Shown: positions 1,892-22,025 of the stretch, piece after piece
Numbering within the stretch: the first letter of the stretch is position 1
Layout: each line of letters begins with the position of its first letter
DNA from: an uncultured Candidatus Saccharibacteria bacterium
Lineage (GTDB): Bacteria > Patescibacteriota > UBA1384 > JAMDBS01 > CAZXAY01
Direction: 5' to 3'
NCBI GenBank assembly: GCA_964638435.1
Contig: CAZXAY010000010.1
Location: forward strand, 1 to 30,573
Length of the DNA: 30,573 bases
Notes under the pieces: generated by a model
The model's database searches: none
What the model was told of the DNA's origin: nothing
Seen by the model: the letters and a program-made list of their open reading frames with translations, nothing else
Translations under genes and position numbers: made by a program

Positions 1892-2575
1892 TTGAGTATT
1901 CGAAAAAAAGGAAAACTTATCGTGATAGATGGGGTTGATGGATCGGGTAAAAAAACTCAGACTGATATTTTGGTACGCCGATTAATCAAAGAGGGATATA
2001 AAGTAGAGGTTGCTGATTTTCCACGTTATGGTGAGCGATCTGCAGCACTAGTTGAGGATTATTTAAACGGTAGGTTTGGAGATGCTAAGTCTGTTAATTC
2101 TTATGCTGCCTCAATTTTTTACGCTGTAGATCGCTATGCCGCATCATTTGAAATTAAAAAATGGTTAGATCAAGGGAAAATTGTTATTTCTAACCGTTAT
2201 GTTTCGGCCAATATGGGGCATCAATGTGGGAAATTAAAAACTAAAAGTGAAAAGCAAATTTTTTTAAAATGGTTGAATAATCTTGAGTTTGAAATATTTG
2301 GTATTCCTAAACCTGATAAAAATATCCTATTGTACGTTGAACCAGGAATAGGTCAGAAATTAGTGGATAAAAAAGGCCATCGCGATTATATTGGTGGAAC
2401 CAAGCGTGATATTCACGAAGCAGATATTAATCATTTGAGGGATGCAGTTAATACTTATTTATACGTTGCCAAAAAATATCATTGGGATGTAATCAAGTGT
2501 TTTAAATCTGATAAAATGCGTCATATCGAAGAAATATCCCAAGACATTTGGCAATTAGTTATGGAGGTTTTATAG
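1892..2575 (+). CDS. tmk: thymidylate kinase (TTG start)
   Basis: P-loop LIVIDGVDGSGKKTQ. Lid/DR(Y) region AVDRYAAS. Length 227 aa. AAGGAGG lies 5 nt upstream of TTG. Confidence 0.85.
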   Translation: MSIRKKGKLIVIDGVDGSGKKTQTDILVRRLIKEGYKVEVADFPRYGERSAALVEDYLNGRFGDAKSVNSYAASIFYAVDRYAASFEIKKWLDQGKIVISNRYVSANMGHQCGKLKTKSEKQIFLKWLNNLEFEIFGIPKPDKNILLYVEPGIGQKLVDKKGHRDYIGGTKRDIHEADINHLRDAVNTYLYVAKKYHWDVIKCFKSDKMRHIEEISQDIWQLVMEVL

Positions 2576-2602
2576 CAATTATAAAAAAGTTACGGATATT
2601 CA

Positions 2603-5048: not shown

Positions 5049-5800
5049 TAACCTGTTATCACCCTCAAGGTGATAACAGGTTATCTACGATATTTTGTTT
5101 ATATGAATTATAGAAAACAACCATTAGTTAATGAAGGAATCTATCATATTCTGAATAAGAGTATCGCAGAGTATAAAATTTTTAGTAATAATTTTCACTT
5201 TAGAAGAATGATGCAATTATTAGTTTACTATCAATATGCCAATGTACCAGTAAGATATTCTTATTTTATTAAGCTTGATCCACAAGAGCAAGATGAAGTA
5301 TTTAGATATTTACAGATAAAAAATGATAAACTTGTTGATATAATTTCCTATTGCCTTATGCCTACCCATTATCATCTTATTTTAAAACAGTTATTGAAAG
5401 GTGGTATTTCAAAATATATCAATTTAATCCAAAACAGCTATGCAAAATATTTTAACATAAAACACGATCGAAATGGCCCATTATGGCAAGGGTATTTTAA
5501 AAATGTATTAGTAGATACAGATGAACAACTTTTGCATTTAACTCGCTACCAACACATAAATCCAGTATCTGCTGGTTTGGTAGAGGATCCTATTGAGTGG
5601 GAATATTCATCTTATAAAGAATATATAGGGAAAAAACAAACTAAAATTTGTAGTTATAATAATTTAATTGATGTCAGACCAAAAATATATAAAAGATTTG
5701 TTGAAAATAGAATTAGTTATCAGCGAGAATTAACAAGAATTAAAAAAATTATATTAGAATAAAAATATCAAACTTAACCTGAAATCACCTTGAGGGTGAT
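5049..5800 (+). mobile_element. REPtron-like unit: RAYT / IS200-like Y1 transposase gene flanked by inverted palindromes
   Basis: Left end: perfect 15-bp stem palindrome TAACCTGTTATCACC-CTCAA-GGTGATAACAGGTTA at 5049-5083. Right end: ATCACC-TTGAG-GGTGAT at 5784-5800. Its loop is the reverse complement of the left loop, and it is preceded by the same TAACCTG..ATCACC arm. Confidence 0.7.
5103..5762 (+). CDS. REP-associated tyrosine transposase (Transposase_17 / IS200-like HUH-Y1)
   Basis: HUH motif in YCLMPTHYHLIL. GPLWQGYF. C-terminal RYQHINPVSAGLVEDPIEWEYSSY matches the RAYT signature NPV.AGLV..P..W.WSS. The ORF-track GTG start at 5070 lies inside the left palindrome, so the ATG at 5103 is preferred. 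Confidence 0.75.
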   Translation: MNYRKQPLVNEGIYHILNKSIAEYKIFSNNFHFRRMMQLLVYYQYANVPVRYSYFIKLDPQEQDEVFRYLQIKNDKLVDIISYCLMPTHYHLILKQLLKGGISKYINLIQNSYAKYFNIKHDRNGPLWQGYFKNVLVDTDEQLLHLTRYQHINPVSAGLVEDPIEWEYSSYKEYIGKKQTKICSYNNLIDVRPKIYKRFVENRISYQRELTRIKKIILE

Positions 5801-16126: not shown

Positions 16127-16208
16127 AAACTTCCATTTTATTGTTATTATTGTAGGATTTATTAACACTATATCAAAATATATTAATAAAATCAACCCAT
16201 ATTTAATA

Positions 16209-16244
16209 AAACACCCCATTCAACTTTGCTTAGGGTGTTTTTTG
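16209..16244. terminator. bidirectional rho-independent terminator
   Basis: AACACCCC ... GGGTGTTTTTT on the + strand. On the - strand it reads AAAACACCC...GGGGTGTTTTATT. Lies downstream of tRNA-Gln (minus strand). Confidence 0.6.
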
Positions 16245-16344
16245 GCTTCGGGACTTGGATTTTCACACCGCCTATCTTGCCCCGTCCTTTTTTCAAGGCG
16301 GGGTAAAGGTGGGGTAAGCCAAGATTGACGGCTTTCCAGTACAA

Positions 16345-16419
16345 GGCTCGGGGACCAGGATTCGAACCTGGATTCACAGCTTCAAAGGCTGCTGTCCTAC
16401 CATTAGACGATCCCCGAGC
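16345..16419 (-). tRNA. tRNA-Gln (anticodon UUG)
   Basis: Minus-strand sequence GCTCGGGGATCGTCTAATGGTAGGACAGCAGCCTTTGAAGCTGTGAATCCAGGTTCGAATCCTGGTCCCCGAGCC. 7-bp acceptor stem. Anticodon arm GCAGC-CTTTGAA-GCTGT. T-arm CCAGG-TTCGAAT-CCTGG. No encoded CCA. Confidence 0.85.
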
Positions 16420-16530
16420 ACTATACGGGATTTCACGTCGGCCGCTGCTTGCCGTGTACCGAACTTTATTCTGGTGCGGGGTCATTTACCACCCCGCTGA
16501 GGTGGGGCAAATTAGACGATCCCAGAATAT
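16420..16530 (-). ncRNA. GC-rich structured segment upstream of tRNA-Gln (leader or unclassified small RNA)
   Basis: About 110 nt, markedly GC-rich and stop-free on both strands. Hairpins: CCACC-TCAGCGG-GGTGG and GGGGT...ACCCC. It starts with GGGATCGTCTAAT, a 13-nt copy of the tRNA 5' end. Shares the 7-mer AAGCAGC with SRP RNA, but no SRP fold could be fitted. Confidence 0.3.
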
Positions 16531-16554
16531 ATTAACAGTTTAACAAATAAATAT

Positions 16555-16582
16555 TGACTTGGCAAGTAAAATTTGCTATGAT
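16555..16582 (+). promoter_or_regulatory. sigma70 promoter of rnpB
   Basis: TTGACT (16555-16560), 17-nt spacer, TATGAT (16577-16582). Predicted TSS about 7 nt downstream coincides with the start of the RNase P RNA P1 helix. Confidence 0.7.
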
Positions 16583-16592
16583 ATATATGCTT

Positions 16593-17014
16593 TAGTAGTA
16601 AAGATTATCGCTCCGATGTAAATCGGGGAGGAAAGTCCGAGCACTTCAAACAATTTACCACGTGTAAACGTGGCCGTCGCAAGACGAGGGAATAGTGTCA
16701 CAGAAATTATACCGCCTAACTATTGCTTGCAATAGTGGTAAGGTTGAAATCGTGAGCCCCTCAATTAAGAGGGGATAGCCTCGAACATTCGGGGTAAAGT
16801 AAGAGCTCACGCGTTTAATTGGTAACAATTAACTGGGTAAACCCTAAATGGTGCAAGTCAGGTGGGTCCGATCATCATCAAAAAGTTAGTTTGGCTCGAT
16901 GTCCACGGATCCTGACGCTTAGACCTCGCCTTTATAGGCGGGGCAAGATAGATGATAATCTAACCTTTTGAGGTAACTCATAGGTAAACAGAACTCGGCT
17001 TATTTACTACTACA
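16593..17014 (+). ncRNA. rnpB: RNase P RNA (bacterial type A)
   Basis: P1 pairing AGTAGTAAA (16596-16604) with TTTACTACT (17004-17012). P4 5' strand GGAGGAAAGTCCGAGC. Conserved ACAGAAATTATACCGCC. GGTAAAGTAAGAGCTCAC. P4 3' strand ACAGAACTCGGCTTAT. Confidence 0.85.
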
Positions 17015-17022
17015 GTATAACA

Positions 17023-17057
17023 AAAACCGCCTATTTAATTAGACGGTTTTTGTTTTT
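17023..17057. terminator. bidirectional terminator between rnpB and the surface-protein gene
   Basis: AAAAACCGCC-TATTTAATTA-GACGGTTTTTGTTTTT. Stem plus T-runs on the + strand, and an A-run/T-run in the reverse reading. Confidence 0.55.
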
Positions 17058-20422: not shown

Positions 20423-22025
20423 CCCGACTTGTAACATTCTGTTTTTTAAAAGAAATTTGATTGATTATCTAACCATATAACTTGTTTCAAAACTCATTTT
20501 TTGTCATACTAATGGCATGTTTCATATTAGAATAACAAAAACTGCTTCATTATCAAGCGCTGTTCAAGTAGTTCGCTATGAACAACGTAGATTAATTGTT
20601 GTAAAACATATTGGTAGTGCCCATACCTCAGAAGATATTAAGGCGCTAAAATTAATTGCGCGCGAGTGGATAGAAAAGAAGTCTAAACAGCACTCTCTTT
20701 TCCTTGCACAAAAAACAACAGCTTCTCGATTTATCTCTTTGGAGAAAAGCCAGTTTTTGGGAACTCGTTATCCTTTTATTCATCAATTTCTGACCAAAAT
20801 ATCTAGTCGATTTAACTTTGAAAAATTAAATTGTAATTTACTTACCGATTTAGTGATTATCCGTATTATTGAGCCTGCGTCTCTTCTGCGTTCCACAGAG
20901 CTTTTAGACGAGTTGTTTGGTATTAAATATTGGCGTGAGGATTTCTATCGTTATTTGCCACATTTTATCGGCTGGAAAGAAAAAATAGAAGAATGTGCGC
21001 TAACTTTAGCAAAAAGAGAACTTAAGTTCAATTTTACACTCGTCTTTTATGATGTAACAACTTTGTATTTTGAATCATTTAAAGCTGATAATCTAAGAAA
21101 ACCTGGTTTTTCTAAAGATGGTAAATCTGCCCAACCTCAAATCTTAATCGGTTTGCTTGTAAGCTCTGAGGGGTTTCCTGTCGCCTATGAAATATATGAG
21201 GGCAATAAATTTGAAGGTCATACTTTAATTCCTTCTATCTCAAATTTTCAACAAAAATATGAGATCAAAACACTGACAGTTGTCGCTGATGCAGCCATGA
21301 TCAGTTCTGACAATATTAAAGCCCTAAAAGGAAATCAGCTTTCATACATCGTGGGTGCTAGAATTACTAATCTTCCCAAGTTAGTAATAGATGAGATTAA
21401 TAAGAAACTTAAACCTGAAGATGGGACAACCATCAGAATAATATCCAAACATGGAATTTTAGTCTGCGGTTTTTCAACTAAGAGGTATAACAAGGACAAA
21501 CGCGAGATGGAAAAGCAAATCGCTAAAGCAACAATATTACTTAAGTATCCGACAAAAGCCAAGCGTACAAAATTTGTTAAAAGTAAAACTAAAACTAGCT
21601 TTGAGTTAAACAAAACGTTAATTGAAAAAACTAAAAAACTCCTTGGGATTAAAGGATATTACACAAATCTTAATGAAGTTGATGATCAAACTATCATCGC
21701 CAGGTATCATGATCTTTGGCACGTTGAACAGGCTTTTAGAATAGCAAAAAATGATCTCGAGACTCGTCCCGTTTATCATTTTAAAGAAGATCCTATTAAA
21801 GTTCATATTATGATCTGCTTTATGGCTTTGGCCGTTTGCAAATATCTAGAGATCAAAACTGGTAAATCAATTAAGAACATTATCAAATTATTTAAAAGTG
21901 TGGTAGATGCCCGAATTCTGAATACTGTAACAAGAGAAGAAATCACAATGCAATCTGTTATATCAAAAGAAGTGAAAGATATTTTAGAAATATTAAGATT
22001 GCCATACTAATTGTTACAAGTCGGG
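20423..22025 (+). mobile_element. IS4-superfamily / IS1634-family insertion sequence
   Basis: Terminal inverted repeats CCCGACTTGTAACA (20423-20436) and TGTTACAAGTCGGG (22012-22025), 14/14. Single DDE transposase ORF. Flanked by a 171-bp direct duplication. Long variable target duplications are a hallmark of IS1634-like elements. Confidence 0.8.
20517..22010 (+). CDS. DDE transposase, IS4/IS1634 family
   Basis: 497 aa. Candidate catalytic D in FYDVTTLYFES and VADAAM. C-terminal YHDLWHVEQAFRIAK fits the IS4 Y-x2-[R]-x3-E-x6-K signature (here L replaces R). Confidence 0.75.
   Translation: MFHIRITKTASLSSAVQVVRYEQRRLIVVKHIGSAHTSEDIKALKLIAREWIEKKSKQHSLFLAQKTTASRFISLEKSQFLGTRYPFIHQFLTKISSRFNFEKLNCNLLTDLVIIRIIEPASLLRSTELLDELFGIKYWREDFYRYLPHFIGWKEKIEECALTLAKRELKFNFTLVFYDVTTLYFESFKADNLRKPGFSKDGKSAQPQILIGLLVSSEGFPVAYEIYEGNKFEGHTLIPSISNFQQKYEIKTLTVVADAAMISSDNIKALKGNQLSYIVGARITNLPKLVIDEINKKLKPEDGTTIRIISKHGILVCGFSTKRYNKDKREMEKQIAKATILLKYPTKAKRTKFVKSKTKTSFELNKTLIEKTKKLLGIKGYYTNLNEVDDQTIIARYHDLWHVEQAFRIAKNDLETRPVYHFKEDPIKVHIMICFMALAVCKYLEIKTGKSIKNIIKLFKSVVDARILNTVTREEITMQSVISKEVKDILEILRLPY

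Follow-up and report, generated by a model that had tools for sequence, protein, structure and literature searches.

The stretch analyzed here, called the window, comprises the 30,573 nt of contig CAZXAY010000010.1 (assembly GCA_964638435.1) from an uncultured Candidatus Saccharibacteria bacterium, and the subject of this work is a stable-RNA locus within it, where the RNase P RNA gene (rnpB) on the plus strand diverges from a tRNA-Gln(UUG) gene on the minus strand. An earlier reading made from the sequence alone (hereafter the sequence-only reading) had proposed this pair of genes, and ARAGORN and Rfam both agree. The boundaries of rnpB shift only from 16593-17014 to 16592-17017(+), and the match scores 174.6 bits against a gathering score of 100, spans the full model and aligns both P4 strands (GGAGGAAAGTCCGAGC and ACAGAACTCGGCTTAT), as is expected of a bacterial class A RNase P RNA. 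The tRNA, previously placed at 16345-16419, is called at 16345-16417(-) by ARAGORN and at 16347-16417 by Rfam (65.8 bits versus a threshold of 29); the above-threshold cloverleaf (RF00005), anticodon TTG, U1-A72 pair and G73 assign it to the Gln isotype. The near-consensus rnpB promoter of the sequence-only reading (TTGACT-N17-TATGAT) was found again by our promoter scan and is kept in two related contigs described below, as TTGACT-17-TATAAT in L052 and TTGACT-17-TATGAT in L054. Facing it is a predicted promoter for the tRNA-Gln unit, which is kept as TTGCCA-17-TAGAAT in L052 and TTGCTA-17-TAAAAT in L054, and the two -35 boxes abut back to back over 12 bp (plus strand TTGACT/TGGCAA). We therefore describe the locus as two putative divergent units, rnpB (+) and one pre-tRNA-Gln unit (-), that would have this -35 pair in common; the transcription start of the latter we infer from the sequence. 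The hairpin and T run beyond rnpB, which a simple terminator scan did not call, is likely a terminator common to rnpB and the convergent gene for an Ig-like protein. The same scan missed the terminator of the tRNA-Gln unit because its loop is longer than 8 nt; the corresponding terminator in the related contig L041 has another sequence of the same design (AAAAACTCCCTTGAGGGAGTTTTTG). Coordinates are collected in Table 1.

Table 1. Features of the rnpB/tRNA-Gln locus in the window, in the order in which they follow rnpB and its signals along the minus strand; promoters and terminators are predictions, and O and I denote tRNA-derived pieces and insertions as defined in the text.
Feature	Position	Strand	Basis
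RNase P RNA, bacterial class A (rnpB)	16592..17017	+	Rfam RF00010, E = 5.6e-55, model positions 1-367
rnpB promoter, TTGACT, 17-nt spacer, TATGAT	16554..16582	+	promoter scan, 10/12 matches, TG upstream of -10 box
Hairpin and T run 3' of rnpB (AAAAACCGCCTATTTAATTAGACGGTTTTTGTTTTT)	17022..17057	+	direct reading of sequence
tRNA-Gln unit promoter, TTGCCA, 17-nt spacer, TAAACT	16537..16565	-	promoter scan, TG upstream
O1, TCTGGGATCGTCTAAT: tRNA-Gln positions 1-16, acceptor 5' strand and start of D arm	16511..16526	-	repeat, shuffle p<=0.0005
I1, insertion with GC hairpins GCGGGGT..ACCCCGC and CCCCACC..GGGGTGG	16446..16510	-	lineage-specific
O2, GCGGC+C: outer anticodon-stem 5' strand and C32	16440..16445	-	homology to L053 tRNA
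Leader (I2a); its 3' part AAATCCCGTATAGTGC is the stalk 5' strand prolonging the acceptor stem	16418..16439	-	pairing, L053 homology
Intact tRNA-Gln(UUG), U1-A72, G73, no encoded CCA	16347..16417	-	Rfam tRNA and ARAGORN
Trailer (I2b), CCTTGTACTGG: stalk 3' strand	16336..16346	-	homologous to L041 and L053 trailers
O3, AAA GCCGT CAAT CTTGG CTT	16316..16335	-	L053 tRNA 3' half, p<0.0005 by shuffling
I3, GC-rich hairpin(s) in outer T loop	16264..16315	-	inner hairpin CCCCGCCTT..AAGGACGGGG
O4, AAAAT CCAAG TCCCGAA G CCA	16243..16263	-	23/24 identical to L041
Intrinsic terminator of the tRNA-Gln unit (AACACCC..GGGGTGTTTTATT)	16205..16239	-	hairpin then U run in fold

The tRNA-Gln gene lies in unusually GC-rich sequence. 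Its flanks reach a G+C fraction of 0.49-0.56 over 16200-16499, versus about 0.30 in the surroundings and about 30-35% for the genome, and the folding energy computed for the 326-nt stretch on the minus strand is -124 kcal/mol (z = -5.15), in keeping with the hairpin-rich blocks noted earlier. The open reading frames (ORFs) in these blocks had been dismissed as spurious, and we concur, because the 97-aa ORF at 16192-16485(-) overlaps the tRNA and the indels that separate window and relative (65 vs 80 nt, 52 vs 24 nt) are not multiples of three. The upstream block opens with an exact 13-nt copy of the 5' end of the tRNA (GGGATCGTCTAAT, at 16511-16523 and 16402-16414), as had been pointed out, and the repeat extends to 15/16 positions (TCTGGGATCGTCTAAT versus TCGGGGATCGTCTAAT). 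A degenerate tRNA duplicate had been suggested on this basis; that holds for the start of the upstream block, but the copy there is incomplete, and the matching 3' half makes up the downstream block.

The template against which both blocks can be read is a plain tRNA-Gln gene in contig L053 (JGI Ga0376277_0078534), which sits upstream of the same small-protein and L25 genes as the window tRNA and has the sequence TCCGGGA TC GTCT AATGGTA GGAC A GTGGC CTTTGAA GCCAT CAAT CTTGG TTCGAAT CCAAG TCCCGGA G. Read on the minus strand, the window flanks are ordered pieces of L053-type tRNA-Gln sequence, which we call outer pieces O1 to O4 as opposed to the intact inner gene. O1 begins a few nucleotides 3' of the -10 box, after a short AU-rich leader, and takes the forms TCCGGGATCGTCTAATGTTAGGAT in L052 and TCCGGGATCGTC in L054. 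O2 is complementary to GCCGT at 16328-16332, and its L052 counterpart, GTGGCC, equals positions 27-32 of the L053 tRNA exactly. O3 supplies the outer anticodon-stem 3' strand, variable loop, T-stem 5' strand and T-loop start (GCCAT CAAT CTCGG in L041), and O4 the T-loop end, T-stem 3' strand, acceptor 3' strand, G73 and an encoded CCA, identical to the L053 3' end except for a G71 to A change. The related locus holds purer versions throughout (TCCGGGATCGTCTAATGTTAGGAT, GTGGCC, GCCAT CAAT CTCGG and CCAAG TCCCGGA G CCA). With tRNA 5' halves and 3' halves as targets and 2000 shuffles, the upstream flank matches tRNA-Gln 5' halves only and the downstream flank the L053-type 3' half only (p<=0.0005), each flank giving p>0.2-0.9 against the opposite half; the same pattern holds in the relative.

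The outer copy is broken at three loops, by I1 in the D region, by the inner pre-tRNA in the anticodon loop and by the GC-rich hairpin I3 in the T loop. No alignment is possible between the first 45 nt of I1 and its L052 counterpart, which is 60 nt long and AT-rich; the last 20 nt of I1 (AGTTCGGTACACGGCAAGCA) are alignable and moderately conserved. I3 measures 52 nt in the window versus 24 nt in L041, with a common core GCCCCGCC..GGGG, and an I3-like hairpin also lies in a T loop of contig L049. We note a likeness between I3 (16264-16315) and the P18 element of the window's own rnpB: 13 nt are exactly shared (CGGGGCAAGATAG, at 16939-16951 in rnpB), and about 38 of 42 aligned nucleotides are identical to P18/J18-2 (16926-16951). 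The relative's rnpB (L052 223-655) lacks P18 altogether, and its T-loop insertion is shorter. Derivation of the whole downstream block from rnpB was considered and rejected, as only the I3 hairpin, by this 13-nt identity, resembles P18. Also rejected were other P4-like motifs (GGAAAGCC, CTTGGCTTA and AAGTCCCGAAGC), which tRNA homology and the stalk described below explain, and a high-copy GC-hairpin mobile element, given that CCCC[GA]CC-type heptamers are rare outside the locus.

When the three insertions are removed, the relative's outer pieces form a cloverleaf that ARAGORN accepts, with a nonsense anticodon only; the window's pieces are rejected because the D-stem 3' strand has been lost. 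The residual loops are C+GGGAAA or C+TGGAAA and YTT+AAAAT, so that neither the canonical 7-nt anticodon loop nor the T loop is restored, and the outer copy is no longer able to decode. The halves are colinear in one predicted transcription unit, unlike those of a permuted or split tRNA gene, where the 3' half precedes the 5' half or the halves occupy separate loci and have complementary leaders. The explanation that we favor, and hold to be somewhat better than an even bet, is that the locus forms one pre-tRNA-Gln unit, in which the conserved leader and trailer descend from a paralogue of tRNA-Gln that was split.

Related contigs show that this layout is old. Those that proved informative were reached via homologues of the neighboring Ig-like protein and of ribosomal protein L25, by which the nearest named relatives are Berkelbacteria and other Patescibacteria; they are L041 (Logan sample SRR22387827), L049, L052, L053 and L054 (SRR22388163). 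L052 has rnpB, the promoter region common to both units, a block homologous to the upstream one and 33 nt of the tRNA from its 5' end. L041 breaks off within a tRNA-Gln gene and has the counterpart of the downstream block, recognized as homologous by nhmmer at E = 5.7e-28. Both contigs belong to one sample, and their ends share 21 nt that fall within the tRNA; their union, presumably one locus, is what we call the relative. L054 has rnpB and the promoter and, of the repeat, the first 12 nt. In the relative, the order of the pieces and their junctions are the same as in the window, and because junctions and insertion points coincide, the architecture predates the split of the two lineages. Gap-free blocks of 25, 150 (central) and 24 nt are identical at 179 of 199 positions. 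Within them the inner tRNA differs at a single site (70/71 identical), and identity is 36/48 to the left of the tRNA and 26/31 to its right, with 15/16 for O1 and 23/24 for the O4 block; I1, except for its last 20 nt, and the terminator are unalignable. The rnpB genes are 85% identical. L25 is 69% identical as protein, and its four-fold sites agree at 0.44 versus about 0.40 expected from base frequencies, so neutral sites are saturated. On sequence grounds the outer pieces appear constrained at least as much as rnpB. The conserved layout, the saturated four-fold sites, the 90% identity of the alignable blocks and the presence of O1 in L054 together make the pieces look maintained by selection.

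The wider searches covered more ground. Six further contigs with Ig-protein or L25 homologues (L039, L040, L047, L048, L051 and L055) gave no information on the nested layout, and in eight species-representative Patescibacteria genomes neither a tRNA nor rnpB lies within 4 kb of L25. A metagenome scan anchored on the inner tRNA body returned five loci with unrelated flanks, only one of which, L046 (JAEAME010000172.1), has a 5' partial copy. Four scans of viral contigs gave one chance match, within a phage gene of high G+C, as well as two phage tRNA-Gln genes of the plain kind. Three characteristic strings, TATTCYGGGATCGTC, AATCCAAGTCCCGRAGCCA and AATCCCRTNNNRTGCTCSGGGATCG, could serve to find orthologues.

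Several of these contigs contain partial or rearranged tRNA-Gln sequence. L049 (2232-2330, minus strand) holds a stand-alone tRNA-Gln 3' half of the inner sequence type. This half begins within the anticodon loop (TTTTGAA), 14 nt beyond the stop codon of a NUDIX gene; its T loop contains a GC hairpin, and the same trailer comes after it. A 5' half was not found within the contig. In L046, a more distant Patescibacteria contig, a 5' partial tRNA-Gln copy (CCGGGGTCGTCTAATGGTAG) followed by two GC hairpins (2499-2600, plus strand) lies about 100 nt upstream of an intact tRNA-Gln gene; the 220 nt that were read downstream showed no 3' fragment to match it. The 0.85-kb block formed by the tRNA-Gln unit and rnpB (window 16205-17057) is inverted relative to the flanking Ig-protein and small-protein/L25 genes when the window is compared with L052 1-770 and L054 1-640 (also L041 5560-5765), the two units remaining linked via their back-to-back -35 boxes. 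Taken at the level of sequence, the inversion, the lone 3' half and the lone 5' copy mark the locus as apparently prone to rearrangement.

Such a history invites the reading that the outer pieces are inert scars without present function, that is, tRNA-Gln fragments left by partial tandem duplications or by lost mobile elements that recombined at the anticodon loop. tRNA fragments beside intact genes are a known by-product of element integration (PMC9897764), and partial copies in direct orientation do stand here beside an intact one, O1/O2 upstream and O3/O4 downstream. The inverted rnpB-tRNA block between the window and L052/L054, the L049 half that starts in the anticodon loop right after the NUDIX gene, the lone 5' copy in L046 and an outer-stem defect that differs by lineage all fit as well. 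However, neither mobile DNA between the copies nor neutral decay is seen: the region has no credible ORF, no integrase or element lies between the repeats, and the fragments stand no farther from the intact gene than 11 nt (16336-16346) and about 110 nt (16418-16510). Window and relative have junctions and insertion points in common, and the pieces remain 84-96% identical despite saturated four-fold sites and an unalignable I1 and terminator; neutral remnants would be expected to have decayed. Conservation that equals or exceeds that of rnpB argues against inert scars, and we regard this explanation as rather unlikely.

The sequences that immediately enclose the inner tRNA are of a different kind from the outer pieces. 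The leader is 12/16 identical to the L053 leader and the trailer 9/13 identical to the L053 trailer, and the two are predicted to pair as a stalk that prolongs the acceptor stem. Counted from the -1/73 pair outward, 11 of 16 positions pair in the window, 12 in the relative and 15 in L053, with several base pairs changed, and 13-14 of 16 pair in L042, L043 and L046, so the stalk is retained with changed pairs across all six; leader-trailer pairing counts show it to be absent from L044, L045 and a phage tRNA-Gln. Pairing of 11-15/16, which extends the acceptor stem to ~19 bp (16418-16433 / 16331-16347 in the window), is thus found in several Patescibacteria tRNA-Gln genes, and none of those with a stalk (window, L042, L043, L046 and L053) encodes CCA. 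The two phage genes, from IMG/VR contigs L056 (275-345, plus strand) and L057 (935-1005, minus strand), are plain tRNA-Gln(UUG) genes with the outer-type acceptor stem TCCGGGA/TCCCGGA, 8/16 pairs and no stalk. The stalk suggests a first cut by a double-strand-specific enzyme ahead of RNase P.

These elements can be assembled into a model of the precursor. A pre-tRNA-Gln transcript would run from about 16530 to the terminator at 16205-16239 with the intact tRNA in the middle, and leader and trailer would form an 11-12-bp stalk in which the acceptor stem is prolonged and base -1 pairs with G73. Stalk and tRNA would together occupy the site of the anticodon loop of the outer copy. Upstream of the stalk would lie outer positions 1-16 and then the anticodon-stem 5' strand; downstream, the anticodon-stem 3' strand, variable loop, T arm, acceptor 3' strand, G73 and CCA. 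Most likely, the outer pieces act in cis, O1 pairing with O4 so that the ends of the precursor are joined and its maturation is organized or protected. Maturation could then proceed by an RNase III-type cut in the stalk, RNase P cleavage at U1 (16417), 3' trimming to G73 and CCA addition, the last step being proposed because the inner gene encodes no CCA.

As to origin, the outer sequence type is that of the functional L053 gene, and in leader and trailer L053 agrees with the inner gene; inner tRNA and outer type differ by paired changes in the acceptor, anticodon and T stems. A leader-tRNA-trailer copy could have been inserted, nested, into an anticodon loop; partial tandem duplications followed by deletions could have given the same layout, as could replacement of the inner body.

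Whether the outer pieces fold together as a tRNA is where the evidence is most divided. RNAalifold on the alignable blocks retains the O1:O4 pairing and the stalk, and the outer anticodon stem switches from C-G to U-A between GCGGC/GCCGT in the window and GTGGC/GCCAT in the relative. The energy penalty for the nested tRNA-like fold, measured from the unconstrained minimum, is only 6.1 kcal/mol in the window and 3.9 kcal/mol in the relative. A number of observations weigh against a precursor organized by its outer pieces. In a blind search a single compensatory pair occurs in 95% of permutations, which is not significant, and helices with two such pairs occur in 6.6%; covariation, available from two sequences only, was accordingly set aside as proof of an outer cloverleaf. 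RNAalifold places O2 in a leader hairpin with three double changes and O3 in a local AAGCC/GGYTT hairpin rather than in tRNA-like anticodon and T stems, and unconstrained folds pair O1 locally with I1 and not with O4. In the window, the outer acceptor stem contains a C2xA71 mismatch and the D-stem 3' strand is missing; in the relative, the outer T stem contains a CxA mismatch. These defects look like relaxed constraint on tRNA shape. The architecture is carried by two full sequences and one partial sequence only, one of the full ones depending on an L052/L041 join through a 21-nt overlap within repeated sequence. Finally, the homology, order and conservation of the pieces are direct observations, whereas it is deduced from sequence and predicted folds where the transcript starts and ends, how the outer pieces fold and how the precursor would be processed.

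A stronger role for the outer copy can also be imagined, as an expressed tRNA-like RNA with an encoded CCA that treats the inner pre-tRNA as an "intron" and has a function beyond the cis role, the inner pre-tRNA being excised by RNase P and a 3' endonuclease to give a two-piece or religated product. The outer G73-CCA is kept in both lineages whereas the inner gene and L053 are without CCA, a short AU-rich leader precedes O1, complementarity of the acceptor, anticodon and T stems is largely retained, and every stem differs between outer and inner copies, which would limit cross-pairing. Against this, the canonical anticodon and T loops cannot be rebuilt: joining leader to trailer gives a hairpin with the loop GUGCC(C/U)U, not CUUUGAA, and the T loop is without TTC. 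Both the window and L054 have lost the D arm, and structural support is weak. Rfam found no group I intron (Intron_gpI) or other splicing signal on window or locus, bulge-helix-bulge motifs not having been systematically searched. We consider an autonomous outer RNA decidedly unlikely. The related proposition that a conserved bacterial tRNA resides inside a functional tRNA-like RNA, whose anticodon arm is extended by a stalk bearing a complete tRNA-Gln, strikes us as unlikely too; if it were true, RNase P and the 3' endonuclease would constitute an intron-free excision system that frees the inner tRNA and leaves a two-piece tRNA-like RNA.

It is very improbable indeed that one or both blocks are an independent small RNA of a described class, such as signal recognition particle (SRP) RNA, 6S RNA, a piece of transfer-messenger RNA (tmRNA) or an L25-operon riboswitch. 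GC-rich, strongly folding blocks in an AT-rich genome are what such an RNA might look like, and the 7-mer AAGCAGC, which resembles SRP domain IV, had led the sequence-only reading to entertain SRP RNA. Rfam was run on the whole window at the gathering threshold, where neither SRP RNA nor 6S RNA nor another such family appeared, and over 16150-16620 on both strands at E<=10 with relaxed filters; the latter search found the tRNA and, beyond it, only a 16-bit sub-threshold chance match that overlaps the tRNA, with no match to the SRP model RF00169 on either strand. The 7-mer itself is not kept, reading AGGCAGT in L052. A tmRNA would have tRNA-like ends with a G3-U70 pair and a tag reading frame; ARAGORN found no tmRNA, and the outer acceptor stem has U1-A72 with G73. 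An L25-operon leader is contradicted by L041, where the neighbor of the trailer block is a convergent gene with its 3' end toward the block. Homology to tRNA-Gln accounts for both blocks: since the flanks are tRNA-Gln halves, the extra GC-rich RNA is leader and trailer derived from tRNA, not SRP RNA or another small RNA already known.

Elsewhere in the window, a 721-aa ORF (11614-13779, plus strand) is a clear homologue of the eukaryotic major vault protein (MVP), unexpected in Patescibacteria, with Pfam matches to MVP_shoulder (1.4e-29) and to Vault, Vault_2 and Vault_3 repeats and a match to solved MVP chains at E = 1e-86 over residues 112-663. Between the stop codon of the threonyl-tRNA synthetase gene and the 118-aa ORF that precedes the vault-protein gene lies a GC-richer spacer of 169 nt (10884-11052, plus strand), which folds into a long hairpin and a second hairpin (-56.7 kcal/mol, z = -4.6) and has no Rfam match in the whole-window scan; it may represent a leader, or a small RNA adjacent to the gene for the vault protein. 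Two plus-strand ORFs are transposase-like, one at 5070-5762 (IS200-like Y1 transposase, 2.4e-07) and one at 20517-22010 (DDE_Tnp_1, 5.2e-12). The latter separates the Ig-protein region from a UvrA-like gene, and those two are adjacent in L039 and L047.

In the literature searched, we found no bacterial case in which an intact tRNA lies between conserved halves of a paralogue. Should the nested layout prove functional, this minimal-genome bacterium would be reusing a defunct tRNA copy to build the structured leader and trailer of the paralogue that still works. This would add a bacterial case to the types of disrupted tRNA gene of Archaea and algae and would offer a natural substrate on which to study how RNase P, encoded next door, deals with a tRNA whose leader is completely paired as far as -1. 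The same reading would account for the GC-rich "orphan" blocks that resemble RNA genes and adjoin tRNA genes in candidate-phyla-radiation (CPR) genomes, and cautions against annotating such blocks as new small RNAs or ORFs.

The anticodon loop is a classical recombination sublocation for integrating elements. tRNA gene fragments that arise from such integration are well described in prokaryotes (PMC9897764), and they resemble the present locus in having partial direct-orientation copies beside an intact copy and a break in the anticodon loop. The locus differs in that 5' and 3' fragments bracket the intact gene, no element lies between them, and they are conserved despite saturated synonymous sites. 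In Archaea, an intron of tRNA-Trp carries a box C/D RNA. Disrupted tRNA genes with multiple non-canonical introns, as well as split and permuted genes, are known from Archaea and red algae (PMC4033280, PMC3978253). As in those genes, the D, anticodon and T loops are interrupted here and the anticodon-loop insert carries a functional RNA; unlike them, the locus is bacterial and not permuted, its outer copy cannot be rebuilt as a decoding tRNA, and no bulge-helix-bulge was seen, none having been sought. Patescibacteria tRNA genes carry group I introns in the anticodon loop, in an account that does not mention tRNA-Gln or nested copies (PMC13011429). Phylum and class of site are the same, but the insert of about 105 nt has no intron match and is a pre-tRNA, not a ribozyme. 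Bacterial 16S and 23S rRNAs are likewise flanked by leader and trailer sequences that pair into processing stalks, which are substrates of RNase III. The tRNA-Gln unit shares with them a long helix drawn from sequences that flank a stable RNA, and differs in that its helix surrounds a single tRNA, pairs base -1 with the discriminator and is itself enclosed by tRNA-derived segments.

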